A stretch of 64,000 bases of DNA from a virus (IMGVR_UViG_3300047469_000103:128001-192000), one strand, 5' to 3'. Positions 26,253-41,698 are shown, counted from the first letter of the stretch. Made by a program: numbers and translations. Notes: generated by a model from the sequence alone, not told the origin.

Positions 26253-26314
26253 CGCAAACTTCCTTTAATCCGTTAGGGTCGGAATCTCGGGCACGGCTTG
26301 CCCGTGTGACTTTC

Positions 26315-26342
26315 ATTGTACCTAAACGGCAAAAGGAATCAA
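26315..26342 (-). promoter_or_regulatory. sigma70-type promoter TTGATT-N16-TACAAT
   Basis: Direct match; followed by CGGGCA-N5-TGCCCG hairpin at 26288..26304. Confidence 0.7.
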
Positions 26343-26620
26343 GCCCCCGTGTAACCTTCGATAACCGCCCCGTGCCAGTAGCGCCCGGTCAATAGCCAAC
26401 GCGTGTTGTCCGTGGCCCCTGTAGCGATGTGCAGCGCCTTTGCCTCTTCTTCTGTTAGAGGTTCTGACGCCTTGCCTTGCAAAAGGCGCTCGTGCGCTTT
26501 CTGTAGAACTTCATAGGCGCGTTTGTAACCGTCGCGTTTCAGTTCCCGGCGAATCTGCGCAAATCGTGTTGCGCTGCAATCGCCTACAATTCTGTTTCCT
26601 TGCCGCAGTCGAATTCTCAT
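26339..26620 (-). CDS. hypothetical protein
   Basis: ORF in gene chain. Confidence 0.75.
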   Translation of the reverse strand: MRIRLRQGNRIVGDCSATRFAQIRRELKRDGYKRAYEVLQKAHERLLQGKASEPLTEEEAKALHIATGATDNTRWLLTGRYWHGAVIEGYTGA

Positions 26621-27366
26621 GTCACCGATTCCATGTAGGTTTTGAAATCCCGCACATTTGGACTGGCGGGGAAAATAACAAAGTCATCCGATTCCTGAGA
26701 CTTGTTAAACGTGCCACTGAAATAAACGCCGTTCACTGTCGATAGGTCTTCGATGGTTGTGTTCGGCGTGCGCACCAAAATGAATTCCACGACCGGCGCG
26801 TAATGTTGCAGCGTGCATTGCAGAACGTGTAAATCGAAACCGACCATACATTCTACTTCGTGCGTCATGCGATCCAGCGTGAGGCATTTATGTTTCTTGC
26901 CGCGCCATTCGAAAACGCCCAGTCGCAGAATTAATTCCGCGTTGCAGTTTAAACCGGCTGGTAAATCATCCGTCGCCGGTTCGTTACGTTCCATTTTCAA
27001 ACGCATGGAAATGCTTTGCTTCTGAATGCCGTAAGCCAGCATTGTCAGCCACGGAATATTTCCCGTGATCGTGTTGTAAAACTGCGCGTCTGCAAAATCG
27101 AAATACACAACGTCGCTCACTGGCATTTTGTGTTGTGTATGTTTCCACACTGCCAACGCAAGATGCTTCGGTAAACGTAACGCCGTAGTCCAGCGACTAA
27201 CGCCGTGCAAACCAGCGCCGTACAGAATCGCGAAACCGCACGCCAGCACCAACAACACGCGGCCAATAAATGGCAGCACGTATTTAACAATGAGAAACGC
27301 GAATGCCAGAACTAGAAACGCAGTGATCCACGAATTAAGCTGGATGCTGGAAATGGTATTAAACAT
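26617..27366 (-). CDS. membrane protein
   Basis: Two N-terminal TM helices. Confidence 0.8.
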   Translation of the reverse strand: MFNTISSIQLNSWITAFLVLAFAFLIVKYVLPFIGRVLLVLACGFAILYGAGLHGVSRWTTALRLPKHLALAVWKHTQHKMPVSDVVYFDFADAQFYNTITGNIPWLTMLAYGIQKQSISMRLKMERNEPATDDLPAGLNCNAELILRLGVFEWRGKKHKCLTLDRMTHEVECMVGFDLHVLQCTLQHYAPVVEFILVRTPNTTIEDLSTVNGVYFSGTFNKSQESDDFVIFPASPNVRDFKTYMESVT

Positions 27367-28042
27367 TTTTGTACCTCACTTGATCCTTGAGAAATTCGTC
27401 GTGGGTAATTGTCAGGCGAACCAGTGAAGCGGAACGGTCGTCTTTACCCACACCCGGAATTACCAGCGACGTTTTTACGTGCGTGTATTTGTGCTGCAAA
27501 ATCTGGCGGGCGAATTCCGCCGCTTCAGCACACGTCGTTTTAAAATCGTCTTCGTGCATGTCGAAATGCGGCATGGCGATAATGTCGATGTACTCGGCGC
27601 CGGTCGTGTGGTGATCCGTATAAACGATGTTGTCACCGTCCCACGCTTTCGGCCACAGACTGCCATTCGTGCGCACGTATCCAATTGACACGCCCGTATC
27701 TTGGCGACCGGGAGACGTGAATTCGAAGTCACCATAAAACACCGAAGTGCAGCGGTGAATTTCCAGCAGCTTTTCGCCCGGTTCGATTGGCGCCGGTTCG
27801 TGCTGGATTAATGGGAATTCAATAATGTTGCGCGTCAAATCTTGCGCAAGACAGAAACCTTGAAACAGGGTATCGAGACGCACGCCCGAATAACCGGATT
27901 CGGTACGCATGTCGGCGTAGACTTCGATGGCGCGGCAATTTAATTTGCTCATGGCCTTTTCGAATTTCTCACGATCCAACGCGAAATTCACTTTGCGCTG
28001 GTCTTCGGAGAGTTTGAATTTCGGAGGGAAAGAAATATTCAT
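27359..28042 (-). CDS. hypothetical mosaic protein
   Basis: REKFEKAM...Y...LFQGFCLA module at the N-terminus. Confidence 0.8.
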   Translation of the reverse strand: MNISFPPKFKLSEDQRKVNFALDREKFEKAMSKLNCRAIEVYADMRTESGYSGVRLDTLFQGFCLAQDLTRNIIEFPLIQHEPAPIEPGEKLLEIHRCTSVFYGDFEFTSPGRQDTGVSIGYVRTNGSLWPKAWDGDNIVYTDHHTTGAEYIDIIAMPHFDMHEDDFKTTCAEAAEFARQILQHKYTHVKTSLVIPGVGKDDRSASLVRLTITHDEFLKDQVRYKNV

Positions 28043-28335
28043 TCGCGGTCTTCCTTGAAATCGTTTTTGTGACGGCGCTTGTATTCACCATAACCGCGAC
28101 TGCAATTTGCGATTATGTCTTCGTACCGGCCAATGGGATATGCGTCTGCCATTTCTGGCGGCATTTCGTATTCCTTCGCATACGCTTTTGCATTCTCTTC
28201 AGTGTCGAAGAAAATATGCACGCTGCGAGCGTTGGTGTAATCGTAGCCACCGGGGATATACCAGCGGCTGACGACGAATTTCGATGTGGGTTTTCTGTAC
28301 AGCGTGCCTTCGTGTTCCGTGGTGTACAGATTCAT
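28039..28335 (-). CDS. hypothetical protein
   Basis: ORF in gene chain. Confidence 0.8.
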   Translation of the reverse strand: MNLYTTEHEGTLYRKPTSKFVVSRWYIPGGYDYTNARSVHIFFDTEENAKAYAKEYEMPPEMADAYPIGRYEDIIANCSRGYGEYKRRHKNDFKEDRE

Positions 28336-28337
28336 TT

Positions 28338-29063
28338 TTAAACCCCCAGCACTTTACGTTGGCGTGGAGTGAGTGCAGCGAGCGCTTCGGCCTTTTCTTT
28401 TTTCGCCTTGGCATCTTTGCGCTCTTTCGCTTTGCGTGCCTTGTCGGCTTTCTCGTGCGTTTCCCACCACGCGGCAACGTCACGCATGCGCGCATCTTTT
28501 GCATCGCTGTACAGCAATTTGTCGCGCTCTGCTTTTGGCAACGCGGTAATGATCGCGCACAGTTCGGTTTCGCAGCGTTCGTCCGAAGCGTAAATGTTTT
28601 TCTCTTCACGCTTGAGCCACGCAGGCACCGTCATTTCCAGACGCTTGCGTACAACGATTTGGTAACGCGCAGCATCGCGCAGTTTGATTTCTTTTTGGGT
28701 CGGTTCCATATGATCGCAATTGCAAGGCATGATTTTTCCCTCACGGACATTATTAACAAAAGTGACGACCGCGTTTTCGATAATGCGCAACGGGTCTTGT
28801 GTGTGCGTGCCTTCGTTCCAGATTTCAGGCGTACACGAAACTTCGAAATTAAATTCCACGCCCCGGCGTAGAAATCCAGTTACGCGGTTTGGGTTTCGGC
28901 GTTCGTGCGAATCCGTCATCCATTCCCACCGCCAGCCAATCGGCAATTCTGGCAATCGGAATTCGTATTTCTTGGGAATCTCTTTTCCCGTGACTGGCAC
29001 CTTTCCGCGCCAGCCGTAACGACCGTTCTTTAATCCGGTCGTCCATGCTTTTAGTGCGCCCAT
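28338..29063 (-). CDS. hypothetical protein
   Basis: 241 aa; C-terminal WWETHEKADKARK...ALAALTPRQRKVLGV. Confidence 0.8.
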   Translation of the reverse strand: MGALKAWTTGLKNGRYGWRGKVPVTGKEIPKKYEFRLPELPIGWRWEWMTDSHERRNPNRVTGFLRRGVEFNFEVSCTPEIWNEGTHTQDPLRIIENAVVTFVNNVREGKIMPCNCDHMEPTQKEIKLRDAARYQIVVRKRLEMTVPAWLKREEKNIYASDERCETELCAIITALPKAERDKLLYSDAKDARMRDVAAWWETHEKADKARKAKERKDAKAKKEKAEALAALTPRQRKVLGV

Positions 29064-29066
29064 GAA

Positions 29067-29327
29067 TTACTCCACAAACCACTCTTTGCCGTTCAACCAC
29101 ACGGCGCCTTTTTCTTCCAGCGTCTTTGCCATTTCGTCAGTAACGATGCAAAGTGTCGCTGGCCCTTCGACCGTGCTGTATTCAGCGTAAGAACCAGCGG
29201 CTTTAATTTCTGCGGCCTTCGCGTTGAACTGTTCTTTGGTTTTCGCCACCAAATAACCGTCGTGGCGATTTCCCCAACCAGCTTCATATTCACGGACGCT
29301 GTTGAAATACGCTACGTTCTGAGACAT
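29067..29327 (-). CDS. hypothetical protein
   Basis: ORF with AAGGA RBS. Confidence 0.8.
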   Translation of the reverse strand: MSQNVAYFNSVREYEAGWGNRHDGYLVAKTKEQFNAKAAEIKAAGSYAEYSTVEGPATLCIVTDEMAKTLEEKGAVWLNGKEWFVE

Positions 29328-29362
29328 ACAATTTTCCTTCTATTATGTTTCCTAGCATCCCA

Positions 29363-29386
29363 TTGCCTACCAACACGGATAGGCAA
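29363..29386. other. intergenic inverted repeat TTGCCTA-N10-TAGGCAA
   Basis: 7-bp perfect arms (9 with wobble); no U-tract. Confidence 0.5.
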
Positions 29387-29401
29387 GTGGATAACGTCGG
29401 A

Positions 29402-29650
29402 TTAAAAATTTACATGCAGCGTGTGACTGATGAAAGAATAATTACCCGGCATCACGTCAGGATCAAGATTCAATTCGTCCGGGTCTACGTCCGGGTTGTA
29501 GATCATGGTTTCCGCCGAGAAATAAACCGGCGCCCACCAATCGTACAAATCGAAACAGGCGCAGTAGGTCATTTGGTCAGGCCCGCTATCAACGTCGAGA
29601 AACGCAGTAACAGCACCATTGCGACCATGCTTCACTTCGAAATTAAACAT
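29402..29650 (-). CDS. acidic hypothetical protein
   Basis: ORF in gene chain. Confidence 0.75.
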   Translation of the reverse strand: MFNFEVKHGRNGAVTAFLDVDSGPDQMTYCACFDLYDWWAPVYFSAETMIYNPDVDPDELNLDPDVMPGNYSFISHTLHVNF

Positions 29651-29816
29651 CGTTCAAACTCCCTTTAGGCTTGAGCATGCGCGCCTTGCGCATGTACTCG
29701 TTTCGGTCTGCCAAGTATTCGGCAGCGGCCATAGTAAACCCGGCGTGTTTTGCTTTCAAGTAATACGTGTTCGCGTACCGGGCTTGATGCACGAGCCACC
29801 ACAGCGATTCGCTCAT
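29643..29816 (-). CDS. 57-aa hypothetical protein (not in ORF track)
   Basis: MSESLWWLVHQARYANTYYLKAKHAGFTMAAAEYLADRNEYMRKARMLKPKGSLNDV; ATGA overlap upstream. Confidence 0.65.
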   Translation of the reverse strand: MSESLWWLVHQARYANTYYLKAKHAGFTMAAAEYLADRNEYMRKARMLKPKGSLNDV

Positions 29817-30220
29817 ATGTCGTCTTCCATTGCTTGTTTGCGTTTGGCTTCGCGTTCCGCTCTACATTGAGCGTTGTAGATTTTCGAAGCCTTGCGATTA
29901 TATTCCTTCTTGAAATGCCAGCCGAAAATTCCGTACCAGCTAGACATATTGTTCGAAGTGCTTTGCATGCTGTTGCCGATGAACAGAAGCGGTTCAACAA
30001 AAATTGCACGCAGGATTTTAAGTGCGATGTGGCCCCAGTGCGCGCCACCTTTGTAATACAGCACGGCGTTATAAAGGCCGTAGCTCCAGCCGCGCAAAAG
30101 TGGGCGAGCAAGAAAACCGATGATAACCGGCGTCACGCAAAACCCGACGATCATGCAAGCGTATGCGTAAATCTGCACAGCCTTGGGCATGCCCATTAAT
30201 GTTGTGAAAATGGTTTCCAT
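29813..30220 (-). CDS. membrane protein
   Basis: Hydrophobic helices at aa 15-40 and 60-80. Confidence 0.75.
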   Translation of the reverse strand: METIFTTLMGMPKAVQIYAYACMIVGFCVTPVIIGFLARPLLRGWSYGLYNAVLYYKGGAHWGHIALKILRAIFVEPLLFIGNSMQSTSNNMSSWYGIFGWHFKKEYNRKASKIYNAQCRAEREAKRKQAMEDDI

Positions 30221-30229
30221 GTTGCCTCC

Positions 30230-30502
30230 TTAACTGCGTGCGTCTTCGTGCAGCAGTTTCAATTCCTGCAATTTATCCGACAGTTCAATAAAGCCGTTGC
30301 CGGTGTGAACTTCGGTGCCGGTTGCAGTGACCATGTTCAACGTGAAGAATTCACGATCTGCAATTACGAGCGAGCCAACGAAAAACTCGTTGCGGTCAAC
30401 CTTGCGCGAAATGTTGTAAACCGCGCAACCGAGATAGCTGGCCGACGAAATGTTGATGTTAGGAGCGAACAGAGCTTTGACTGTGTTTCGTGAATGCAGC
30501 AT
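30230..30502 (-). CDS. hypothetical protein
   Basis: ORF in gene chain. Confidence 0.75.
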   Translation of the reverse strand: MLHSRNTVKALFAPNINISSASYLGCAVYNISRKVDRNEFFVGSLVIADREFFTLNMVTATGTEVHTGNGFIELSDKLQELKLLHEDARS

Positions 30503-30516
30503 GGTATTTCTCCGAA

Positions 30517-30657
30517 TTAGATTTTGGTGGCGCCGCGTGGTTTAGGTGCGTTCTTTTTACTGCGGTATTCCATGTAGCAGATTGCGAACATGATCGCAGC
30601 AACACCAGCCAGTACGGCGATTTCTTTTACGTGGCCGATTACGGTTACTTCGTACAT
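30517..30657 (-). CDS. 46-aa single-TM microprotein (not in ORF track)
   Basis: MYEVTVIGHVKEIAVLAGVAAIMFAICYMEYRSKKNAPKPRGATKI. Confidence 0.65.
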   Translation of the reverse strand: MYEVTVIGHVKEIAVLAGVAAIMFAICYMEYRSKKNAPKPRGATKI

Positions 30658-30686
30658 TTTAAAACTCACTTCTTGAAAAAAGTTGA

Positions 30687-31103
30687 TTAGCAGATTTTGT
30701 AAGTGCCGGATTTCAGCAGGTCACGCATCACGTCGCGGGTCATCATTGCAGGGCCGTTTTCGTCACTGCGCAGATGCTGTACATAGTCGCCGTAATCAGG
30801 CCCGTGCATGATTACGAATTCAATGCTGTACGGTTCCGTGTTCGGGTCTGGATACTCCGCTTTGTGTTCCTTTCGGATTTTATCACAATGCGCGTTGTAG
30901 CCTTCCACGTCGGCGCCGATGTTCGTCAGATACACGAACGCCTTTTTGCCTTCTTCAGAAAGCATGCTGGTTTGTGATGCCAGCGTGTCGAAATGAAACG
31001 TCATACCAACGTCACCAATTCGCACCGTATCGCCTTCGCGCAATTCACCAATTAAATCTGGTGAAGCGGCAAGGTCGAGTACCATTCCTTTTAGCAGTGT
31101 CAT
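30687..31103 (-). CDS. hypothetical protein
   Basis: Start reassigned to ATG 31103 (MTLLKG) behind GAGG. Confidence 0.75.
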   Translation of the reverse strand: MTLLKGMVLDLAASPDLIGELREGDTVRIGDVGMTFHFDTLASQTSMLSEEGKKAFVYLTNIGADVEGYNAHCDKIRKEHKAEYPDPNTEPYSIEFVIMHGPDYGDYVQHLRSDENGPAMMTRDVMRDLLKSGTYKIC

Positions 31104-31114
31104 TTTATTGCACC

Positions 31115-31261
31115 TCAAACATTTTTACGGAAACGACGTTGAGCGTCCTGCAATTCTTTGGCGCGGTTTTCTTCAGCGGCAACTTGCTCGCTGTTCCACT
31201 GCCAAGTTTTGCGAGGCGAGTTCGAAACGGTAGTGCGGGATTGGACATTGAATGCGCGCAT
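31115..31261 (-). CDS. 48-aa early protein (not in ORF track)
   Basis: MRAFNVQSRTTVSNSPRKTWQWNSEQVAAEENRAKELQDAQRRFRKNV; first gene after the promoter, TAAAGGAAGTTT RBS. Confidence 0.7.
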   Translation of the reverse strand: MRAFNVQSRTTVSNSPRKTWQWNSEQVAAEENRAKELQDAQRRFRKNV

Positions 31262-31323
31262 TGGAAACTTCCTTTAAGGCGTGAGTTAAGAATCTATCAG
31301 GCGTTAGTGCCGATCTGGAATCA

Positions 31324-31352
31324 ATAGTGCCCGAATGCCAATAGGAAGTCAA
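31324..31352 (-). promoter_or_regulatory. sigma70-type promoter TTGACT-N17-CACTAT
   Basis: Direct match immediately after a terminator. Confidence 0.65.
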
Positions 31353-31370
31353 CGCGCAGAAACGACGAAA

Positions 31371-31401
31371 GGCCCACGGCCCTTATGACGGGGCGGTGAG
31401 C
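31371..31401 (-). terminator. intrinsic terminator
   Basis: GGCTCAC-C-GCCC-N7-GGGC-C-GTGGGCC followed by TTTCGTCGTTT. Confidence 0.6.
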
Positions 31402-31408
31402 CTATTCG

Positions 31409-31645
31409 TTACGTGCCGTATTGCAGGCGGTGACGGCCTTTCGCTTTGAGTTCGGCCTTTGTGTTTGGTACGCCCTTGATGGTGGCGCCCGTTTGCTTTG
31501 CGAAACCGTTAACCAGATGGTCTTCGAAATCTGCGAAGCGGCGCGCTTCCGTTTCTTTTGCCGACCAACTGAATTTGTAACCGTAGCCAGTTGCATACGA
31601 ATGCCCTGTCATGAACTTGCCGCGTTTCAATAGTAGTAGTGCCAT
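31409..31645 (-). CDS. hypothetical protein
   Basis: GGAG RBS before ATG 31645. Confidence 0.7.
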   Translation of the reverse strand: MALLLLKRGKFMTGHSYATGYGYKFSWSAKETEARRFADFEDHLVNGFAKQTGATIKGVPNTKAELKAKGRHRLQYGT

Positions 31646-31659
31646 TTCGAAATCTCCCT

Positions 31660-31860
31660 TTAGGCGTCGATTGTAATTCCCACACGCCGACGATTTGTCA
31701 GCGATTCATTTTCTTCACGCAGCAAACGCGCCATACACTCTGCTTCAATTGCGCGTCGTTTCCATTTTGCTAATTCGATGGCCTGAATATAAACCAGACC
31801 GATTACGCACAAGCCACCGAACATTAAAAGTGCTGCTGCCATAATTTCCACGATACTCAT
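31660..31860 (-). CDS. single-TM protein with short coiled coil
   Basis: Hydrophobic aa 3-26; GGAGG RBS. Confidence 0.75.
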   Translation of the reverse strand: MSIVEIMAAALLMFGGLCVIGLVYIQAIELAKWKRRAIEAECMARLLREENESLTNRRRVGITIDA

Positions 31861-31897
31861 ACATCCTCCTAAATCCTTTCAGGGAACCGCATGCAAT

Positions 31898-32278
31898 TTA
31901 TTCCGCTACACAATCCAGTTTTGCAGTGGCCTTTGTTTCCGCTGCGGCTTGCAGTAAATCAGCGCGGAAGTGATCCGCGTTCTTTCCACACAGCGGTTGA
32001 CCACCTTTCCCGTAGAACCGTGCAAGCTCCAGAATTTCTTTTTGACCATTTACAGCGGTCAGGTCGAAATTCAGTTTCGCGGTCACTGCGTTACTTGCAG
32101 GTTTCGCGTCGGTGCGACATTCGAATGTGCCGTCGCGCTTTTCGTTGCGCGCTGCGGTTTGCATACCGAATTTATTTGTCGAACACATTTGTTGCGCCAT
32201 CACCGTGTAGAAATCCGCTACGCGTTCTTCTTTGCAAGGTTGGCCAGCCAGACACACACTCAGGAAGAGAGAAATCAT
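31898..32278 (-). CDS. putative exported protein with duplicated Cys-containing domain
   Basis: Short hydrophobic N-terminus; two KE..+A.FY....Q.+C..N...C units. Confidence 0.75.
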   Translation of the reverse strand: MISLFLSVCLAGQPCKEERVADFYTVMAQQMCSTNKFGMQTAARNEKRDGTFECRTDAKPASNAVTAKLNFDLTAVNGQKEILELARFYGKGGQPLCGKNADHFRADLLQAAAETKATAKLDCVAE

Positions 32279-32293
32279 TTGAACGTCCTTTTA

Positions 32294-33509: not shown

Positions 33510-34988
33510 TTACAGAGCGCGGAATTCTTCAGCAGTAAGCGGCTTGCCGGTGTAGGTCAGTTGGCCGTCGAGCGAAATGATTTGATCGAACGGCAGCGGG
33601 AAACGATTTTCGGTGATTGCGTAACGAACGTTCTCACGACGTACAACACGTTCGATTGGCACGATTACCGATTTGCTACCCTTGACTACACGCACACCAT
33701 GTTCGCGAACGTCGGTGATGGTCGGACGCGGTTCAACGCTGTGCATCTTTTTTGCTGGTGCAGCTTCAGCCTTTGCGAAATCTGCTTTTTTGTTGCCAAC
33801 GGTTTTGCGTGCATTTTCAGCAGGCTTTGCGGCGGCGACTTTTGCAGCAGGTTTAGCAGCCGGTTTTGCAGCCGGGGTTTCGTCAGCAACAAACTTGCCA
33901 CGGTTGTTTTTGCGCAGGCTGGATACCGCAACGCGGGTGCCTTCTTCGGTCACGATGTAACGTGCGCCGTCAGTGCCTTTAACAACCTTGGCGATGGTTT
34001 CCGCTTTGCGACCGTTCATGTAAACAGCGCCGCGCAAATCGTTGCCGGTGAATTCTACAGCTTCAGCTTTTGCAGCAGGTTTTACAGTGGCTTTAGCAGC
34101 CGGGGTTTTTGCAGCAGGGGCTTTTTCAGTTGCAGCCGCTTTTGCGCCGCCCTTTGCCATTTTGCCGGTCTTCACGTCACGAATGTGAGCGATGAAGAAT
34201 TTACCCGACGATTCAGCAGTTTCCAGCGCACGAGCTTCGCTCAATTTCACGCCTTCGTAATTCCAAACTGCGCCGTCTTTAAAGGTGACGATCAAAGTTT
34301 GAGTGTTGCGGTCGTATTCGGCAGAAACCAGATTCGACGACTTGCTGATTTCCAGATGGCGAATCGGGAATTTACGCACGTTCGACGATTCAGCTTCGAA
34401 TTCGTCAGCCGCTGGCTTTTTAGAAGCCGGTGCTTTTGCAGCAGGTTTAACAGTTGCTTTTGGTGCTGGTGCTACCGGCGCTTTTGCGTCGTATTTCGAA
34501 ACGGCGTCAGCCATTACGCGCAGATTGCCACGGTTGTTGCGTTCGATATCGGCCAGCAAAATGCGAGTGCCTTTATCGGTAACGGCGAAACGTTGTTCGG
34601 TTTCTTTGTCCTTCACGATGCGCGTTACGGTTTCTTTCGCACGACCGATCAAAACAACCTGATCGCGAACTTCAGTCGCTTTCAGTTCCACGACTTCAGC
34701 TTCGACCTTTTTACCGCGTGGCGTTTTTGGTTCGCCATCCAGTTTCAGGGTTGGAGCTTTTGCAGCAGGAGCTTTTGCAGCCGGTGCTTTCGGTGCAACT
34801 TCCGATTGCTTGGCTTTGAATTCTTTTGCCCACGATTTCAATTCGCGGAAAGTAACGCCGTTACCGATATCGGTGCCCAGCGAATAAAGTGCTTCACCGG
34901 TTTCCGATTTGTGCGCCTTGTTCTGAGCTTCCAGAGCGGCAACAGCAACGGACAACATAGCAGCGACGGTGTGAGTAGAAGTAGTCAT
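33510..34988 (-). CDS. KTSC-domain protein with three repeated beta domains and PAAK histone-H1-like linkers
   Basis: SSNLVSAEYDRNTQTLIVTFKDGAVWNYEGV...ESSGKFFIAHIR is a KTSC signature (aa ~214-272); repeats at aa ~105-160, 315-369, 424-480. Confidence 0.85.
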   Translation of the reverse strand: MTTSTHTVAAMLSVAVAALEAQNKAHKSETGEALYSLGTDIGNGVTFRELKSWAKEFKAKQSEVAPKAPAAKAPAAKAPTLKLDGEPKTPRGKKVEAEVVELKATEVRDQVVLIGRAKETVTRIVKDKETEQRFAVTDKGTRILLADIERNNRGNLRVMADAVSKYDAKAPVAPAPKATVKPAAKAPASKKPAADEFEAESSNVRKFPIRHLEISKSSNLVSAEYDRNTQTLIVTFKDGAVWNYEGVKLSEARALETAESSGKFFIAHIRDVKTGKMAKGGAKAAATEKAPAAKTPAAKATVKPAAKAEAVEFTGNDLRGAVYMNGRKAETIAKVVKGTDGARYIVTEEGTRVAVSSLRKNNRGKFVADETPAAKPAAKPAAKVAAAKPAENARKTVGNKKADFAKAEAAPAKKMHSVEPRPTITDVREHGVRVVKGSKSVIVPIERVVRRENVRYAITENRFPLPFDQIISLDGQLTYTGKPLTAEEFRAL

Positions 34989-35140
34989 GGTGTAATCCTT
35001 TTAAAATGAGTTTGGCATAATTGCCGGTCTGAAAAACGTTTTGCCTTAAAGGCGCATAGCTGGTCGAGCATTTGCAGCAGGTTCGAAACTTACCCTAATC
35101 TGTTAGTGCAGATTCGTGCGGGCATATTTGCCGAGATTCA

Positions 35141-35169
35141 ATATTGCGTGAAAGCTGTTTGAACGTCAA
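35141..35169 (-). promoter_or_regulatory. sigma70-type promoter TTGACG-N17-CAATAT
   Basis: Followed by CTCGGCAAATATGCC (35121..35135). Confidence 0.65.
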
Positions 35170-35221: not shown

Positions 35222-35251
35222 CTGCACATTCCGAAACCGGCGAATGTGCAG
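35222..35251. other. perfect 10-bp inverted repeat CTGCACATTC-N10-GAATGTGCAG
   Basis: Just after the 35262 stop; no U-tract on either strand. Confidence 0.6.
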
Positions 35252-35261
35252 GAAGGCTTAT

Positions 35262-35510
35262 CTAGATTCGCGGAAGCCAGTTAAACCGCTTCCAGCCGCA
35301 TACAACAGGCAACCAAAGGAAAACGATGGTTGCGCCCGCTTCCAGCCACGCCCGCGCCTTCAGCCAGCCGCGTAGCTCGTTATAGTGCTGGTAAGTTGTC
35401 GCGCACTGTTCGTCAGTCTCGCGCATTTCCCGAATGTACAGAATCGAAACGGCGAACATTCCCGCGCCGATTGTCAGGTAAACGAGAACCACTATCAGAA
35501 TGTAGAACAT
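35262..35510 (-). CDS. two-TM membrane protein
   Basis: Start reassigned to ATG 35510 (MFYILIV). Confidence 0.7.
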   Translation of the reverse strand: MFYILIVVLVYLTIGAGMFAVSILYIREMRETDEQCATTYQHYNELRGWLKARAWLEAGATIVFLWLPVVCGWKRFNWLPRI

Positions 35511-35512
35511 GC

Positions 35513-36184
35513 TCAACCCTCGACAGTCTGCCAACCAGTGGCGTCGGCTTGTAGACGTTTCAGCGCAGACATAGAAACGTACATCGGCACCAGAACGTTA
35601 TAGGCCGATTCGAAATCAATATCCGGCGAACCCGATTCGAAAAGCTCAATTCCGCGTGCGGTGATGCTTTCCTTTTCATCGTCGAGAACCTTAGCCATTT
35701 CTTCAGCTTCAGCAATCGACCATTCCAACGAACCGCGCACGTCGGCGTAAAACGCGCCTAGAATCTTTTTCATGTCGTCTTGAAAGATTTCCGACAGAAT
35801 TAAAACGCGGGTGAATTCCAATTCCGCGATTTCGCCAATGTGAATGTCTTGCGTGCGTTGAACGCGGTCGCTTTCCGTTTTCCAGTTCGCCGGTTTCAAC
35901 AACGCCAACGAATTCAAACCTGAATGGCAGCACTGGACAGCAACGCGCAATTCGAACAGTTGATTTTCAACCATACGGAATTGCTGTTCGTTGGTGATGG
36001 CTTCGACGTGCGAACCGAATTGATTCGGCGTGCCGTCTTCCTTTGCCCAGCCTGCAATGTTGCCTTCGCCGTCGATCCACGCAAACAACGTAAGATCGTT
36101 TTCATCCGCCACGCCCTTTTCAACCGGTTGCATTTCGAACGCGGCGTTTTTGTTAGCGCAGTGGAACACATAAACTGTAGACAT
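35513..36184 (-). CDS. hypothetical protein
   Basis: 223-aa ORF in gene chain. Confidence 0.8.
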   Translation of the reverse strand: MSTVYVFHCANKNAAFEMQPVEKGVADENDLTLFAWIDGEGNIAGWAKEDGTPNQFGSHVEAITNEQQFRMVENQLFELRVAVQCCHSGLNSLALLKPANWKTESDRVQRTQDIHIGEIAELEFTRVLILSEIFQDDMKKILGAFYADVRGSLEWSIAEAEEMAKVLDDEKESITARGIELFESGSPDIDFESAYNVLVPMYVSMSALKRLQADATGWQTVEG

Positions 36185-36187
36185 GAT

Positions 36188-36625
36188 TTATTCCTCGATT
36201 ACAAACGTTGTAGTGATGCCGATAACCAAACCGTCGTCGGCCACGCCGGTACGAATGCGGTGTTTTAATTTCTTGCCTTCAAATGCCACGCGATAGCGAT
36301 ACATATGCGTGCGCATTAATTCCTGTGCATCTTTCAGCAATTCGCCGCCGCCGACCGACGTTAATTCGTTGTCGTCGGAAACGGTGCATTCCATTTCGAT
36401 TGCGCCAAGATATTGATGGCTGGTGAATTCGTCCGGCATACCAATTGGCATAACGAACGAACCGTCGGTGCGATTCGGAAGGCCGTCGATGCGTGCATAA
36501 CCTAAAAGGTCGCCGTCATCATTAAACCACTCATACGATTTATGCTCGCGTGGATGTGGATCGCCTTTGTTAACTTGCGTGCCGTCGAAACGTTTATCGG
36601 CACAGCGGTAAATATGCGTGTTCAT
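36188..36625 (-). CDS. hypothetical protein
   Basis: ORF in gene chain. Confidence 0.8.
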   Translation of the reverse strand: MNTHIYRCADKRFDGTQVNKGDPHPREHKSYEWFNDDGDLLGYARIDGLPNRTDGSFVMPIGMPDEFTSHQYLGAIEMECTVSDDNELTSVGGGELLKDAQELMRTHMYRYRVAFEGKKLKHRIRTGVADDGLVIGITTTFVIEE

Positions 36626-36843
36626 TATTTGCTCTCCACGTAGGTGACGAATTCTTTACCGATGGTTGCCCATTTCTCTAAATCGAATTGCGACAGCTTG
36701 CGAACGTGGAAGGTTTTACGTTCCATGTAAATTCCGGCTTCTGCATTTGTGTAATCCAAATAGTATTGGTGCAGGCCAGCTTTACCGAGAGTCAAATGCG
36801 GGCAACCGATCGCAGCGATGATCGTGGTTTTATTAATTGCCAT
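36625..36843 (-). CDS. hypothetical early protein
   Basis: ATG 36843 behind TAAGGGAAGTTT. Confidence 0.75.
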   Translation of the reverse strand: MAINKTTIIAAIGCPHLTLGKAGLHQYYLDYTNAEAGIYMERKTFHVRKLSQFDLEKWATIGKEFVTYVESK

Positions 36844-36903
36844 GTTCAAACTTCCCTTATCTCGTGAGTGACAAATCTGGTAGGCATATTTGCCGAGGAT
36901 TGA

Positions 36904-36933
36904 ATCGTCTCACTTTCCTTGTCCCATCGTCAA
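36904..36933 (-). promoter_or_regulatory. sigma70-type promoter TTGACG-N18-GACGAT (TGn extension)
   Basis: Followed by CTCGGCAAATATGCC (36883..36897). Confidence 0.55.
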
Positions 36934-36971
36934 GCGCCCGCGCAAAACTTTCTGCAACGGGCGCACAGGCG

Positions 36972-37364
36972 TTAGGCGGCGGCGTAGGCGCTAACCTGTT
37001 CGACGATCTTGGCGCCACGCGTTTTGGAAGCGCGGGAACTTGGTTCGCCGTTTATGTAGAAGGCAACCGGGCGATTCATCTTTGACTTGCCGCGCACGAT
37101 TGCATAACCGTGCATGACAATCCCCGATTTGAAATTGAGTACGACCTTTTCACCGTTGCTCAATTTGTACGTTCCGCGTTCGGTGATAATTACATCCGAC
37201 TCGACGGGAATAAATTCTACCGTCACATTTTCCGGTGCGCCCATTGCTTTTGCACACGCAGTTAATTGGTCGGACGTTTCTTTGCTGTCGCTGTACCAGT
37301 GAACGAAATCCTGTTGCACTTTGCCAGTCATGACAATTCGCGTGCCGTAAATTTTATTACTCAT
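36972..37364 (-). CDS. hypothetical protein
   Basis: ORF in gene chain. Confidence 0.8.
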   Translation of the reverse strand: MSNKIYGTRIVMTGKVQQDFVHWYSDSKETSDQLTACAKAMGAPENVTVEFIPVESDVIITERGTYKLSNGEKVVLNFKSGIVMHGYAIVRGKSKMNRPVAFYINGEPSSRASKTRGAKIVEQVSAYAAA

Positions 37365-37554
37365 ATTGCTTTCCTCGATTTACGTGACGCTGTAGCGCCT
37401 CTACTAATTCAGCCTTCCGGTGCGACTGCTTTTCCTTCTCTGCACTTTCCAGTTCCAACGTTAACCGGTTCTCACGCATGTAAACGCCGAACGCACACAA
37501 CAGCATGACAACGTAACCTGCCATACAACCGTACATGACATATTCAGGACGCAT
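37357..37554 (-). CDS. single-TM protein
   Basis: Start reassigned to ATG 37554 behind GGAG. Confidence 0.7.
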   Translation of the reverse strand: MRPEYVMYGCMAGYVVMLLCAFGVYMRENRLTLELESAEKEKQSHRKAELVEALQRHVNRGKQYE

Positions 37555-37575
37555 ATTTTTATTCTCCATACGAGA

Positions 37576-37598
37576 AAACCGGACACTAGGCCCGGTTT
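37576..37598 (-). terminator. intrinsic terminator
   Basis: AAACCGG-GCCTAGTGT-CCGGTTT-TCTCGT. Confidence 0.65.
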
Positions 37599-37631
37599 CT
37601 ACTTTTGAGGTTTTATTGCGTTGGTGTCACC

Positions 37632-37898
37632 TTACTGAATTCGAATTGGTTCAAGTTCGCCTTTCGGCCAGCAGACGGTGCCGTGTTCGTTAATACGTGC
37701 GCCGGGAGTGCAAAGCCATACCATCATGTCTTTGTCGATTTGCTCAGGCGGCACAATACTGTTGTAGGCACACAGCGCGTCAGATACGGTTGCGCCTTTT
37801 CCCCAGTATCCGTTTTTGTGAACCATGACGTAAGACAGCGAAGCGTCCACGGTATGGTCAGCGAGAAATTTCTCAACAACGGATTTACGTGCGGTCAT
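37632..37898 (-). CDS. hypothetical protein
   Basis: Start reassigned to ATG 37898 (MTARKS) behind GGGAG. Confidence 0.75.
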   Translation of the reverse strand: MTARKSVVEKFLADHTVDASLSYVMVHKNGYWGKGATVSDALCAYNSIVPPEQIDKDMMVWLCTPGARINEHGTVCWPKGELEPIRIQ

Positions 37899-37944
37899 TT
37901 TATTTCTCCCACAATTTATTTTAAGGTTGGCAGAGCGACCAGCT

Positions 37945-38301
37945 TTACCACGTAGCAGGAATGACGTTGCGGTGAACCAGCGGTTTGAGAATGTCGGCCA
38001 GCGCTTCGACTGCTTTCTTTTGCGCTGGTGTTGGTTTTTCGTTTCCGAAATACGTTCCACCTTCCAATGCCTCCGCAAGAATTTCCGCGTCGGACACAGA
38101 TTGCAGAGTAACGGTCACGGCTTTTTCAGGCCGCATTAACAGAACGAATTTCGTGGCCGAGTCAACGAGACGTTTTCGTGTCTCCTTGCTGCGGTCGTCG
38201 TAAAGCTCTTCGATCAGACCATCATCGGTAAGAAGCTGCACACGATGATAAAGAACCTCTACCTGAAATTGCGTCAGATTTAATTCTTGCGGATATTGCA
38301 T
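37945..38301 (-). CDS. hypothetical protein
   Basis: Start reassigned to ATG 38301 (MQYPQE). Confidence 0.75.
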   Translation of the reverse strand: MQYPQELNLTQFQVEVLYHRVQLLTDDGLIEELYDDRSKETRKRLVDSATKFVLLMRPEKAVTVTLQSVSDAEILAEALEGGTYFGNEKPTPAQKKAVEALADILKPLVHRNVIPATW

Positions 38302-38321
38302 GATAATGCCCCTTTGCTTGT

Positions 38322-38525
38322 TTATGGTTTTACGCGTTTCACTTTTACGTTGGTGCAGTGCCGACAAACCATTGTGTAGCTGCGGTGATGGATAATTCCA
38401 GCAGCAGCCATATCAGCGGCAATAATGCTGCCGTCTTGCGCTGCCGTCCATTTTACGTCTTCGATTGCGACACATTTGTAATCGTGTTCACACAGGCCCA
38501 ACAGGCGGCGCAGAAGTTTAAGCAT
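38322..38525 (-). CDS. small Cys/His protein (DUF1660-like)
   Basis: LLRRLLGLCEHDY...VCRHC. Confidence 0.65.
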   Translation of the reverse strand: MLKLLRRLLGLCEHDYKCVAIEDVKWTAAQDGSIIAADMAAAGIIHHRSYTMVCRHCTNVKVKRVKP

Positions 38526-38533
38526 GCGTCACC

Positions 38534-38908
38534 TCAGAAATTCAATGCGCGATGTGCGCCGGAACGTGCCAGTTTGAAAATGGCGCCGTCTTTATAGTAG
38601 ACCGAAATATTCGTTTCCAGTCCTTCGCGGCTGTAGCAGTAGAAATCCAGAATGGCGCGACCGTCTTCGGTCAATTCCACGCCCTTACGAAAATCAGCCC
38701 ACGAAATTAAATCAGCGAGGTCGGTGTCTTGCCAATTTTCCGTTTTCGCAACGATGGCAATATTAGCCGAAAAGGTTTCGCTGTGATCTTGCGTGTTAAG
38801 GCGTGTGCCGAGTTCCATACGGCTCAGGTTGCGCACTTCCTGTTTTGTGTAGTCGCGAATCTTTTTGCATTCTTCAGCAGTTGGTTTCCACAGTTTCGAA
38901 ATTGCCAT
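38534..38908 (-). CDS. hypothetical protein
   Basis: GAGGA RBS. Confidence 0.8.
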   Translation of the reverse strand: MAISKLWKPTAEECKKIRDYTKQEVRNLSRMELGTRLNTQDHSETFSANIAIVAKTENWQDTDLADLISWADFRKGVELTEDGRAILDFYCYSREGLETNISVYYKDGAIFKLARSGAHRALNF

Positions 38909-38931
38909 TGTCGTTTCCTCTTAGGGTCAGA

Positions 38932-38967
38932 TTGGTTTACTACTGACAAAGCCCGCACGAGGCGGGC
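38932..38967 (-). repeat. family-2 hairpin/terminator plus TTTGTCAGTAGTAAACCAA cassette
   Basis: Near-identical to 25526..25561. Confidence 0.8.
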
Positions 38968-38972
38968 TATGT

Positions 38973-39482
38973 TTACTCAGGCTGATAAATCTCGACGGAT
39001 TTAATCGGGCCTTTGAATTTGAAACAGCGGGCGATGAAATCGCGCACGTCTTCTTCAGACTTGCCGTATTCCTGTTGCACTGCGCCGTTCTCGAAAGTGA
39101 TGGTGTAAAGTTGCTCGCCCATTGGAGGCTCCTTGATGGTTTTCAGATGTTGTAGAATTCGGTGATGCGCATTTATTTCGTTGCGCATTCTTTCCGCTGC
39201 TTCTGCGCCGTGTTCGTATTCGTGATCCGCGAACGGACTGTTATACGCTTCAGCTTCTTTATAGTCGCGAATGAGCGCCTGAATATCCGCTGAATCAAAC
39301 CACGACAACGCACGTTCGGCACGTTCCAGAATTGTACGCGTGCCGGTGAAGGCTTGATGATTCTCCACCTTGTTCAAAACATCGACCGTCACGCCCATAT
39401 AATGAGCAAGGTCACTGCTTTTAATGCCGAGGCGAATTCGCCAGCGTTGCAAATTGCGTCCGGTCAATTCACACGTTGCCAT
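38973..39482 (-). CDS. XRE/Cro-type HTH protein with extra C-terminal domains
   Basis: LTGRNLQRWRIRLGIKSSDLAHYMGVTVDVLNKVEN fits the XRE HTH pattern. Confidence 0.7.
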   Translation of the reverse strand: MATCELTGRNLQRWRIRLGIKSSDLAHYMGVTVDVLNKVENHQAFTGTRTILERAERALSWFDSADIQALIRDYKEAEAYNSPFADHEYEHGAEAAERMRNEINAHHRILQHLKTIKEPPMGEQLYTITFENGAVQQEYGKSEEDVRDFIARCFKFKGPIKSVEIYQPE

Positions 39483-39672
39483 TTTTGCGCGCTTCCTCTT
39501 CTGCTTCCTGTTCGATCTTTTCGATTTCGGCGGTCATACGTGCGTATGCTTCCGACCGACGTTTATAGTACATATGCACCTTGTACATTTTCCGGCCTTC
39601 CCACGCGAACCACGCAATGAGCGCGAGAATGATTAAAACGTACACGGTGCGGAGAACTATTTGCGGTTCCAT
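39469..39672 (-). CDS. single-TM protein
   Basis: Hydrophobic aa 9-24, charged helix. Confidence 0.75.
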   Translation of the reverse strand: MEPQIVLRTVYVLIILALIAWFAWEGRKMYKVHMYYKRRSEAYARMTAEIEKIEQEAEEEARKNGNV

Positions 39673-40031
39673 TATTTCGCACTCAGCAAGTCAACAATGA
39701 ATGGATCGCAAATATCAGCGCCTTGATTTTGCAGAAACTCGACAAGCTCAACAGTCGAATTACCACGGCACAAAAGTTCGCCCGCTAAAGTGACGATGCT
39801 GAAATTCGAATTCTGATCCCACAGGTTAATTGAGAACCAGATATATTCGTGGGTGCCGTCATTCAAAATGCGACGGACATGGAAAGAACAACCGCCGACA
39901 AAATCTTCACGGCTAACACGAACCACGTTTTCGTTGAAAAGCGTTTCGACGATGGTCGGCAGAACACGCGACGGCACCATGATTGTGTTGCGCAGTTGTG
40001 CTTTCGATGCAGCTACAGATTGCAGAGTCAT
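39672..40031 (-). CDS. hypothetical early protein
   Basis: First gene after the 40090 promoter. Confidence 0.8.
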   Translation of the reverse strand: MTLQSVAASKAQLRNTIMVPSRVLPTIVETLFNENVVRVSREDFVGGCSFHVRRILNDGTHEYIWFSINLWDQNSNFSIVTLAGELLCRGNSTVELVEFLQNQGADICDPFIVDLLSAK

Positions 40032-40089
40032 AGGAAACGTTCCTTATTGCGTGAGTTCAAAAGTCGGTAGGCATATTTGCCGAGACTCA

Positions 40090-40119
40090 ATATTGCACGA
40101 ATCGGCATTCAGTTGTCAA
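40090..40119 (-). promoter_or_regulatory. sigma70-type promoter TTGACA-N18-CAATAT
   Basis: Perfect -35; followed by CTCGGCAAATATGCC (40070..40084). Confidence 0.65.
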
Positions 40120-40127
40120 TCCCCCGT

Positions 40128-40316
40128 TTACGCAAGGGACTTCCAACGGCGTACTGGTTTCTCTACATCGCGTTTCAGAAGTTTGGCCCATTGCACTTTG
40201 AACTGCGTGCGGCCATAAAGTGCTTCAAGTTCGGCAGCCGGTTTTGTATCCGCATATACGGTTATGGTGGCGCTGGTGAAATGCGCGTTTGTGATGCGGA
40301 CAGAATATTTGTTCAT
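40128..40316 (-). CDS. hypothetical protein
   Basis: ORF between a terminator and a promoter. Confidence 0.7.
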   Translation of the reverse strand: MNKYSVRITNAHFTSATITVYADTKPAAELEALYGRTQFKVQWAKLLKRDVEKPVRRWKSLA

Positions 40317-40342
40317 GAAAAATCGCCGGGGGAGAAACGAAA

Positions 40343-40365
40343 AAGCCCCGCACGAGGCGAGGCTT
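40343..40365 (-). terminator. family-2 related terminator AAGCCTCGCCTCGTGCGGGGCTTTTCGT
   Basis: Same GCCTCGTGCGGG core as 25546 and 38952. Confidence 0.65.
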
Positions 40366-40378
40366 AGTCTTTTACGTT

Positions 40379-40912
40379 TTAGTCTTTCTTGCCACTGACA
40401 GGAACAATTACAGAACCATCCTCAGTGCGGCGATTACCTTTTTCTTCAGCGCGGCGAATATCTTCGTCGTGCATATCTGCGACATTACCGAAATTGCGTT
40501 TACGTTCGGCGGCTTTGTCTTCCGCATTCGCATCAATCAAATGTTGCAACGAATTGAAGTGCGTCATGCCGCGACCGGTAGCTGGCAGGAAATAAGCGTC
40601 GGCACGTTGCGCGTGTGCTTCAAGGCCGGACGGTTCCCCTTTCTTTGCCATTTCCACAAATACGCTGTACCCATCACCGAATTCCGTGAAAATCCATTCA
40701 CCGAAACGCTGGTGCGCTTCACGCGTGGTCATATAGTCGGCCAGTTCTTCGGAAAACTTACCGAGGCGCAGATTCGAGAATTTCATCAGTTCGAAGAAAT
40801 CGCGAGTCTTAACGAACGCACGGGATTTGCCTTGACGCATGGTAATGTCCAAAACGACTTTAACGCCATCGGCCATTTTCGAAACGTCAGCAGGGTTCAT
40901 GTTGATAGGCAT
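40379..40912 (-). CDS. hypothetical protein
   Basis: 177-aa ORF, GGAG RBS. Confidence 0.8.
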   Translation of the reverse strand: MPINMNPADVSKMADGVKVVLDITMRQGKSRAFVKTRDFFELMKFSNLRLGKFSEELADYMTTREAHQRFGEWIFTEFGDGYSVFVEMAKKGEPSGLEAHAQRADAYFLPATGRGMTHFNSLQHLIDANAEDKAAERKRNFGNVADMHDEDIRRAEEKGNRRTEDGSVIVPVSGKKD

Positions 40913-41000
40913 TGCAGTAACTCCAAAATCCAGCGCGAAAGATTCACCGGGCGCCAGCGGCTGGAAAACCAGCGCCTAGTGTTTGTTGCTCAAATGTTCT

Positions 41001-41231
41001 TTACAGTTTTTCGCGTTCGGCGCGAATGTCGAGGAATTCAGGCTGAATGCCGAAATTCTCTTTGACGTAATCAATGCCGGTTCCCCGCGCCACTTCAAAG
41101 CGTGGCGTAGGGCTTTCGTTAAACGGCCAGATGCACGGCTTCAAACCTTTCGTGTGCAACTGGATAAGGTCGGGGCCGTGATCGCAATGTAGAACGACGA
41201 TTTTTTCGATTTCAAGCATCAGTCGTTTCAC
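41001..41231 (-). CDS. hypothetical protein
   Basis: Start probably GTGA overlap at 41231 (or ATG 41219). Confidence 0.65.
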   Translation of the reverse strand: MKRLMLEIEKIVVLHCDHGPDLIQLHTKGLKPCIWPFNESPTPRFEVARGTGIDYVKENFGIQPEFLDIRAEREKL

Positions 41232-41587
41232 AGGATCATTCCCGACCGAACCAAACGGAAGTGATCGGCGCAATCGAATTTCAAATCGGTTGCTTGCGTG
41301 CCAATTTGGAACGGCAACAATTTCGCATGGAAGCGATTTTGGTTGTGTTCGTTTTTGTGATCCAGATGGCGCGCTTCTTCGGTCATTGCCGCGTTAGCGT
41401 ATTCCCACGCTTTCCATTGTTCATCCGTTTGAGGCGCACGGTCGGTATTAATGAACAAACCATCAAGGGTACGAATCGCACCAATGAGGTTAATGCTCAA
41501 ACCCGAATCCGCTGGAATGAAATAGAAATCAACACCTTCAGGATTCCGTTCAAATGTGAACAGGATTGCTTCGTGTGCAGCGCTCAT
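41228..41587 (-). CDS. hypothetical early protein
   Basis: Start reassigned to ATG 41587 behind AAGGA. Confidence 0.75.
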   Translation of the reverse strand: MSAAHEAILFTFERNPEGVDFYFIPADSGLSINLIGAIRTLDGLFINTDRAPQTDEQWKAWEYANAAMTEEARHLDHKNEHNQNRFHAKLLPFQIGTQATDLKFDCADHFRLVRSGMIL

Positions 41588-41669
41588 GATGTATGTCCTT
41601 TTCAACGAGTGAGAAAACTTCCGCTAATCCGTGAGTGTCGAATCGCGACCTCTGCGGGCTAGAGCGCCC

Positions 41670-41698
41670 ATCCTACAGGGCTTGCGGGCCTGTGTCAA
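41670..41698 (-). promoter_or_regulatory. sigma70-type promoter TTGACA-N17-TAGGAT
   Basis: Direct match; leader carries GATTCGAC-ACTCACG. Confidence 0.7.

Follow-up and report, generated by a model that had tools for sequence, protein, structure and literature searches.

Why does one block of about 90 nt, in which a promoter, a hairpin, a loose spacer, a leader box joined to a Shine-Dalgarno (SD) block and an ATG follow each other in constant order, stand again and again in front of the genes of a large phage? We addressed this question in a 64,000-nt stretch of viral DNA (IMGVR_UViG_3300047469_000103:128001-192000), hereafter the window, in which positions are counted from the first letter. 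The first-pass annotation of this DNA had suggested a genome-wide element common to early transcription units, and our analysis supported this view: the block, here called the cassette, occurs seven times in the window and 8-12 times in each complete relative, and in all these phages it is always co-oriented with, and immediately before, gene runs of an ORFan-rich region. As far as sequence comparison allows us to judge, the cassette is probably a standard leader of early mRNAs, with a 5' stabilizing hairpin ahead of a shared region for translation start.

Cassettes were located with a covariance model (R1) built from 22 copies and run with filters off. Searched on both strands of the window, it gave seven matches, all on the minus strand (expectation (E) values of 2e-10 to 5e-13; boxes at 41637, 40057, 36870, 35108, 31287, 26278 and 5172), and no further match on either strand up to E=1. 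Similarly, a scan for CACTCAC-N5-9-GGAAGTTT that required at least 13 of 15 matching positions found seven minus-strand sites, compared with 0-2 in shuffled sequences. In 72 copies, the promoter consists of TTGACN, a spacer of 16-18 nt and a weak -10 element in which A2 and T6 are retained; TG frequently precedes this element, chiefly in the copies of relatives. TTGAC is given as invariant across these 72 copies, in which the promoter was called by consensus only, and no sequence upstream of -35 was conserved across copies. The distance from -35 to the box was 61-66 nt in 69 of the 72 copies, which implies a predicted 5' untranslated region (UTR) of ~55 nt. The hairpin followed the -10 element by 0-12 nt in most copies; the gap was 6-10 nt in 43 of 69, which corresponds to 0-4 nt past a +1 placed 7 nt downstream of -10. 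Between hairpin and box there were 5-18 nt in the window and mostly 6-12 nt across the family, and the SD block was separated from the ATG by 3-6 nt. A GA(T/C/A)T-N4 motif, which had earlier been described as part of the leader, was not conserved outside the phage of the window (0.1-0.6 bits).

Judging by its protein matches, the window represents the early region of a jumbo phage that is hitherto undescribed and is kin to Pseudomonas phages HRDY3 (313.7 kb) and Lu11 (280.5 kb). A 422-aa baseplate-hub-like protein (59505-60773) was 74% identical to its HRDY3 counterpart, 67% to that of Lu11 and 42% to that of PaBG, and at the nucleotide level 6.9 kb of the window had zero megablast matches among GenBank phages. 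Nearly all window genes are on the minus strand. In tblastn searches, the window was colinear with the ORFan-rich regions of HRDY3 (~241-313 kb and then past the record end) and Lu11 (~28 kb down to 1, then 277-259 kb), with structural proteins 50-75% identical and small proteins only 25-50%. The Lu11/HRDY3-like group is described as encoding a phage sigma factor and as lacking its own RNA polymerase (PMC7412058). A sigma domain was detected in three relatives, and no T7-type polymerase (PF00940) was found in three relatives, a search whose control was uninformative in bacteria. The Lu11 record annotates sigma70-like "early promoters" at cassette sites, plus a distinct "middle/late" motif.

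A total of 74 distinct copies were pooled from ~9 related phage genomes of ~300 kb. Lu11 cassettes are located at 75, 4468, 6278, 9883, 11569, 243886, 254256, 276391, 117406 and 134341, and those of HRDY3 at 16727, 261500, 263869, 270249, 271725, 276283, 282091, 311548, 148493/148319 and 129098; further cassettes were present in approximately seven IMG/VR contigs of 113-314 kb. In other viral contigs, single pattern matches failed the covariance model. PaBG had no cassette at E up to 1, and a simple scan of this genome revealed no comparable sigma70 leaders. A 38-bit version of the box, searched in 185,579 prokaryote genomes, gave one match where ~4 were expected by chance, and in Rfam, searched with the entire window up to E=1, no family matched, the one hit being unrelated and due to chance. 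Most window cassettes are syntenic in relatives, suggesting that they are old, and the proteins encoded behind orthologous copies share only 25-50% identity with their Lu11 and HRDY3 counterparts. In a relative of 86% identity, the differences by segment were 0 of 75 positions in the SD block and the interval from SD to ATG, 1 of 35 in the box, 7.8% in the hairpin and spacers, 11.9% in the coding sequence behind cassettes and 18% upstream of -35.

The leader contains an invariant 23-nt unit, CACTCAC-N8-GGAAGTTT, in which N8 (G/A N N W T W A R) had no indels in the 74 distinct copies; the box consensus across copies is ACACTCACG. Box positions were 92-100% conserved, with 1.3-2 bits over the box and SD block and ~0 bits right after GTTT, a conservation that is partly built in by the extraction pattern and that all model matches show in the same way. 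By inspection against the textbook anti-SD, the segment UARGGAAGU can form pairs at 8 of its 9 positions with the 16S rRNA 3' end, the exception being an internal A.C mismatch. In the window, the SD sequences of ordinary genes are varied (GGAG, GAGG, AAGGA and others), and GGAAGTTT is found in cassettes only, bar one chance site at 12873.

The hairpin was examined with a pairing test that used a box-anchored alignment, a fixed 7-pair helix and a stated structure, with a slid partner and shuffled sequences as controls. In the fixed helix, 70.8% of cells were paired, compared with 31-49% when the partner was slid, and this level was reached in 0 of 500 shuffles; the covariation score in the same alignment was 0.283, compared with 0.183 +/- 0.035 in shuffles. 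Hairpins centered by the finder were kept out of the covariation count, since selection of the best hairpin per sequence would produce such a signal in random DNA as well. The 36 nt before the box had a mean folding energy of -9.7 kcal/mol, compared with -6.9 kcal/mol in dinucleotide shuffles (Wilcoxon 6.5e-6). Each copy has a single hairpin, and the best hairpins comprised 51 different stem sequences, with stems of 4-13 bp and loops of 3-13 nt. G.U pairs form in RNA only and on the sense strand only, and are mismatches in DNA; in these stems there were 33 G.U and 12 A.C pairs, with both scored alike and a composition-expected share of 0.48 (p=8e-4). RNAalifold predicted no structure in an ungapped alignment, because the window hairpins are one column out of register. 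No copy had a U tract after the hairpin, and the cassette hairpins are therefore not terminators. Since pairing is retained through changes of stem sequence and of loop length, and G.U exceeds A.C, we favor a hairpin that is maintained as a structure of the transcript; these results exclude a dimeric operator with fixed half-sites. Three mechanisms had been proposed in the first-pass annotation, namely a 5' stabilizer, an operator over +1 and an antitermination (nut/put-like) site; the first fits best, given the stem position past -10 and the pairing kept across 51 stems with their G.U excess, whereas the other two failed on their defining features, as discussed below.

In the mechanism that we propose, the cassette would be the early expression unit of a Lu11/HRDY3-like jumbo phage whose infection is opened by the host sigma70 enzyme. 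The host-type promoter would fire a transcript that begins just before the hairpin; the GC-rich hairpin would cap the 5' end and shield early messages from 5'-initiated decay (RppH, RNase E); and through the single-stranded leader all early transcripts would load ribosomes onto their first cistron at one common site, an extended SD, with the CACTCAC half perhaps acting as an enhancer or as a handle for a factor. The sequences themselves show the anatomy, the conservation throughout the clade, the upkeep of the stem with its sense-strand G.U bias and the sharp limits of the box, whereas we infer the start site, the early timing, the stabilizing effect and the translational role. The T7 gene 10 leader has a 5' hairpin, an enhancer and a strong SD, and the stem-loops in the 5' UTRs of ompA and papA reportedly act as stabilizers (work attributed to Emory, Bouvet and Belasco, 1992). 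In such leaders, the hairpin and strong SD are expected to block RppH and RNase E and to support efficient translation of the first cistron. 5'-terminal stem-loops are established mRNA stabilizers, RppH requiring unpaired 5' nucleotides, and the 0-4 nt predicted here between +1 and the stem in 43 of 69 copies match the geometry that known stabilizer hairpins need (PMC3997798). The cassette resembles all these leaders in having a small hairpin near the predicted 5' end, an unstructured stretch and a strong SD. Unlike the ompA, papA and T7 gene 10 leaders, it is repeated 8-12 times per genome and conserved in a clade, and its 5' position is predicted. CACTCAC has no counterpart in the T7 gene 10 leader, in which the epsilon sequence, UUAACUUUA, directly abuts the SD.

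Several observations weigh against a stabilizing hairpin followed by a common ribosome-loading site. The +1 position is only predicted from that of the -10 element, and in ~13 of 69 copies, including those at 41637 and 5172, the 5' arm enters or abuts -10, so that only part of the stem could be transcribed there. Folding of the sense and antisense strands did not differ significantly over all copies (-9.7 vs -9.2), and three window hairpins have only 4 bp (approximately -4.6 to -4.9 kcal/mol), with z-scores near -1. The copies share descent, and the p-values given above are thus inflated. A preferred stem sequence, GGGCA/TGCCC, is retained, which could equally mean sequence recognition. In addition, SD pairing accounts for neither CACTCAC, the invariant A of GGAAG nor the fixed spacing of 8 nt, and has no need of the trailing TTT. 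Finally, orphan copies at 35108, in Lu11 (134341 and 254256) and in HRDY3 (148319) keep the box and AAGTTT without a start codon, and the second G of their SD is lost. Another copy without a start codon, HRDY3 129098, retains GGAAGTTT buried in a stem, and at HRDY3 282091-282135 (locus L037, ~2091-2135), the orthologue of 26278, the SD lies inside a terminator-like stem, GGGAAGT-TTAGG-ACTTCCC, followed by TTTT. These orphan and SD-buried copies suggest that the box may have a function of its own. No open reading frame (ORF) was present directly behind HRDY3 282091, and its early promoter may give a short ~75-nt RNA or an attenuated leader.

The last of these points lead to a possible, though tentatively held, alternative: the 23-nt box could be an RNA handle for a trans-acting factor (a repressor, an activator or a sequence-specific endoribonuclease) and thereby a joint post-transcriptional switch of early messages, the hairpin being merely a stabilizer or a second contact. 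This alternative is compatible with the early-leader reading favored above. The parts of the box that exceed the needs of an SD, and the orphans, which lose only the GG of the SD but retain the box and AAGTTT, speak for it. Moreover, the box is limited to the first cistron of sigma70 units, and its confinement to the phage clade, with none in PaBG and chance-level occurrence in prokaryotes, argues against a host regulatory motif. On the other hand, control of the first cistron leaves the rest of the operon on, unless cleavage triggers decay of the whole message, and conservation alone cannot separate a factor site from a ribosome enhancer. A candidate factor is also missing: the RegA, RegB, S1 and S21 families were undetected in three complete relatives, although the RegA and RegB controls were silent as well. 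T4 has RegA translational operators, and its RegB cleaves GGAG in early SD sequences. As in T4, a common sequence at early translation starts would permit coordinated post-transcriptional control, but the motif here is GGAAG within a 23-nt box. CACTCAC-N8-(GG)AAGTTT might thus conceivably be an address label of an early-message regulon, read by a phage RNA-binding protein or nuclease unrelated to RegA and RegB. Such a factor would time the translation or destruction of each host-polymerase transcript, and the orphans would be long regulated leaders or decoys. Antisense or decoy RNA made from orphan copies was considered and rejected, as no opposite-strand promoter was found near 35000.

With regard to proteins that might read the element, the first-pass annotation had named KTSC, XRE, TrfB-like and LytTR candidates encoded in the window. 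A Pfam scan of 30 ORFs confirmed the KTSC (33510-34988) and LytTR (41905-42315) domains, but found neither XRE nor TrfB. The LytTR gene was directly upstream of a cassette in 5 of 5 cassette-bearing genomes and was missing from PaBG, and this adjacency is the sole tie between the candidate proteins and the element. LytTR sites are two imperfect direct repeats of 8-13 bp that are ~12 bp apart and usually located upstream of -35 (PMC4064291, PMC6193735). LytTR was rejected as the reader: direct repeats are missing, and the box and SD block are dissimilar, 8 nt apart and downstream of the predicted +1. FsrA sites may resemble TTAGGGAA. The LytTR neighbor (42325-42930, minus strand), which lies immediately upstream of the LytTR gene and within the early region, codes for a VgrG3-like C-terminal domain alone (Pfam E=1.5e-56), a peptidoglycan hydrolase; gp25 of Lu11, a "putative endolysin", shares 72% identity with this protein. 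The KTSC protein (33510-34988, minus strand; 492 aa) has long Lys/Ala/Pro repeats of the KPAA type (DNA repeat families D1-D3) and is probably an abundant early DNA-binding protein. A similar Lys/Ala/Pro-rich protein is encoded at ~148250 in HRDY3, behind two tandem cassettes; it is a possible paralogue.

It is unlikely, in our view, that the repeats are chiefly recombination modules of the PeSL kind, by which small genes would be gained, lost and swapped and whose uniformity would reflect concerted evolution. Some of the evidence fits this idea. Neither Lu11 nor HRDY3 has a homologue of the first gene for 4 of the 7 cassettes; the gene at 38534-38908 has a cassette in Lu11 (9883) and a different element in the window; the window phage lacks a 0.5-kb gene of the 86% relative, and the breakpoint falls within the cassette 40057 promoter; and a 68-nt stretch is 72% identical between cassettes 35108 and 40057. 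However, the cassettes are mostly syntenic despite 25-50% protein identity, indicating an old origin and maintenance by selection, not a recent spread. This selection differs between columns, with 2 bits in the box and ~0 bits in the spacers, which points to function and not to homogenization, and only a single indel was observed at a cassette. The extra gene of the 86% relative, seen when 40097-40125 was compared with IMGVR_UViG_3300042013_000061 (13450-13964; loci L048 and L057), codes for ~175 aa.

The analogy with the promoter-stem-loop units of T4-type phages, drawn in the first-pass annotation, is apt for the architecture but does not extend to membership. Like the PeSL elements of RB49 and phi1 (Arbiol et al. 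2010, PMC2839356), the cassettes are repeated intergenic units of ~100 bp in a plastic early region, have a sigma70-like promoter and a GC stem-loop, end in the SD and start codon of small ORFans and may be places where genes are shuffled. In PeSLs, tests have shown that the stem-loop terminates transcription coming from upstream, and its position is upstream of, inside or overlapping the promoter (PMC2839356). In contrast, the hairpin of the cassette comes after -10 and has no U tract, separate terminators precede some promoters, and the leader has an invariant box that PeSLs do not have; the two elements are not homologous.

We consider it quite improbable that the hairpin and box form an antitermination site of the nut, put or rrn type that allows read-through of terminators in long early operons. 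As in lambda nut, rrn boxB-boxA-boxC and HK022 put, a promoter-proximal hairpin is combined with a conserved linear box, and the order of hairpin and then box recalls rrn boxB-boxA; furthermore, ~21 kb from 26278 to 5172 has no further sigma70 cassette. The boxA consensus is CGCTCTTA / GCTCTTTAACAA. CACTCAC(G) is unlike either form, and the loop is unconserved, whereas boxB needs a defined loop. HK022 put consists of two adjacent, larger stem-loops of ~65-70 nt just past the promoter; here a single small hairpin of 4-13 bp stands in a predicted 5' UTR of ~55 nt. The box both adjoins and contains the SD and stops at the start codon, an arrangement that suggests a role in translation. The long runs, including that from 26278 to 5172, contain other promoter-like repeated elements, and terminator-like sites were no commoner than in shuffles (31 vs 29.9 and 39 vs 31.2 +/- 6.1). 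Slightly less probable still is a DNA operator over +1 at which a dimeric phage repressor shuts off early transcription: the inverted repeat does overlap the predicted +1, its arms favor GGGCA/TGCCC across phages, three window copies share the entire 15-mer including the loop, and several DNA-binding proteins are encoded nearby, but a dimer with fixed half-sites could not tolerate 51 arm sequences spaced 3-13 nt apart, many stems contain G.U pairs (mismatches in DNA) with a 33:12 sense-strand bias, and the three identical copies share their flanks too (repeat families D5 and D7), which marks them as recent duplicates.

Other known signals were also compared with the cassette and rejected. A sigma54 promoter requires a GG-to-GC distance of 12, and that in GGCA-N4/5-TGCC is 9-10 (by inspection). 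The likeness of ACTCAC...GGGA to T7/T3-type promoters involves a spacing of 7-8 nt rather than 4, and the PF00940 polymerase was not found in three relatives. A CsrA/RsmA site fits GGA in part, but the first GGA is present in only ~1/3 of copies, and bacterial genomes lack the motif. The possible pairing between ACUCAC and 16S rRNA is limited to a 6-mer match that is expected by chance.

The individual window cassettes, all on the minus strand, are as follows. The -35 hexamers recorded in the first-pass annotation at 26342, 31352, 35169, 36933, 40119 and 41698 were all correctly placed, CTCGGCAAATATGCC was indeed identical at 35121, 36883 and 40070 (an equal number of near-matches occurred in 0 of 100 shuffles), and the stem variants at 26288, 31300, 35014 and 41698 were present as described. 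Cassette 1 (41615-41698; 46.5 bits) has -35 TTGACA (41698-41693), -10 TAGGAT (41675-41670), the hairpin GGGC-GCTCTA-GCCC (41669-41656), the box CACTCAC (41637-41631) and GGAAGTTT (41622-41615); its gene probably starts at ATG 41587, after a second SD (AAGGA). In the 86% relative, the hairpin of this cassette is identical and the sequence 3' of it has diverged. Cassette 2 (40029-40119; 48.6 bits) has -35 TTGACA (40119-40114), -10 CAATAT (40095-40090), the hairpin GGCA-AATA-TGCC (40081-40070) with a possible outer stem GAGTC/GACTT, the box AACTCAC (40057-40051), GAACGTTT (40042-40035) and ATG 40031, the start of an ORFan of 119 aa. Cassette 3 (36841-36933; 51.9 bits) consists of -35 TTGACG (36933-36928), a weak -10 GACGAT (36909-36904), the hairpin GGCA-AATA-TGCC (36894-36883), the box CACTCAC (36870-36864), GGAAGTTT (36855-36848) and ATG 36843 (72 aa).

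Cassette 4 (35086-35169; 49.8 bits), which is of the orphan type, has -35 TTGACG (35169-35164), -10 CAATAT (35146-35141), the hairpin GGCA-AATA-TGCC (35132-35121), the box CACTAAC (35108-35102) and GTAAGTTT (35093-35086), which has lost the GG of the SD; no start codon follows, and the leader continues for ~100 nt to the KTSC gene (ATG 34988). This long leader contains an upstream ORF of 29 codons (34986-35075, minus strand; MLDQLCAFK...) that has no SD of its own and whose stop codon overlaps the KTSC start codon as ATGA. The Lu11 orthologue of the KTSC gene is directly behind a normal cassette (4468). Cassette 5 (31259-31352; 51.6 bits) is directly preceded by an intrinsic terminator (31384-31368) and has -35 TTGACT (31352-31347), -10 CACTAT (31329-31324), the hairpin ATCGGC-ACTAAC-GCCTGAT (31314-31296), the box AACTCAC (31287-31281), GGAAGTTT (31272-31265) and ATG 31261 (48 aa). 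In cassette 6 (26250-26342; 56.8 bits), -35 TTGATT (26342-26337) and -10 TACAAT (26320-26315) are followed by the hairpin CGGGCA-AGCCG-TGCCCG (26304-26288), the box CCCTAAC (26278-26272), GGAAGTTT (26263-26256) and ATG 26252 (57 aa). Cassette 7 (5142-5233; 56.6 bits), the orthologue of HRDY3 311548, has -35 TTGACT (5233-5228), a TG-extended -10 TATTGT (5210-5205), a long hairpin (5206-5178) with four G.U pairs, the box CACTCAC (5172-5166), GGAAGTTT (5157-5150) and ATG 5144 (185 aa).

Of the two sites at which the first-pass annotation had noted ACTCAC plus an SD outside its promoter series, 5166 and 42949, both are present, and the former is this complete cassette 7 with promoter and hairpin. 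The latter, CACTCAC-N9-GGAAGTG (42931-42955, minus strand), precedes the VgrG3-like lysozyme gene and is a look-alike or remnant rather than a member, having a spacing of 9 instead of 8, no promoter or hairpin and no model match. Likewise, the hairpin CCGGCA-ATTA-TGCC (35014-35028, minus strand) exists within the long KTSC leader but does not form a cassette, as promoter, box and model match are all absent.

The window and its relatives contain additional repeated elements. A second intergenic unit was found on the minus strand at 25511-25560 and 38917-38966 (88% identity over 50 nt), with the leader part also at 4121-4134. It consists of a GC hairpin (CCCGCCTCGTGCGGG) and TTTG, then GTCAGTAGTAAACCAA and CTGACCCTAAGAGG just before ATG, and resembles the annotated "middle/late promoter" of Lu11 (CTGTAAATRGTA...); this unit may be a terminator, a phage-sigma promoter and a leader. 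A small hairpin, GCGCA-loop-TGCGC, is repeated with its flanks at 20476-20512, 22742-22778 and 24241-24277 (repeat family D6). In Lu11 and HRDY3-type phages, and not in the window, the palindromes ACGCGTATAGAGG / TATACGCGTGCGCACGCGTATA are located 30-60 nt upstream of many cassette -35 elements, sometimes as two direct 19-nt copies (for example, loci L008, ~120-180, and L036, ~16150-16200), and may be terminators or regulator sites.

Hundreds of early genes in Lu11-like jumbo phages are unstudied, and we found no transcript maps for them. The cassette offers a sequence-based map of the transcription units of the host polymerase, with 8-12 units per genome. It is also the most conserved feature of a fast-evolving region, implying that something important reads it. 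If the hairpin stabilizes the message and the box drives or gates translation, the cassette would provide Pseudomonas-type hosts with an expression module that is compact and portable. Recognition of the box by a dedicated factor, if it occurs, would represent a new case in which a phage group not related to T4 controls its entire set of early genes post-transcriptionally.

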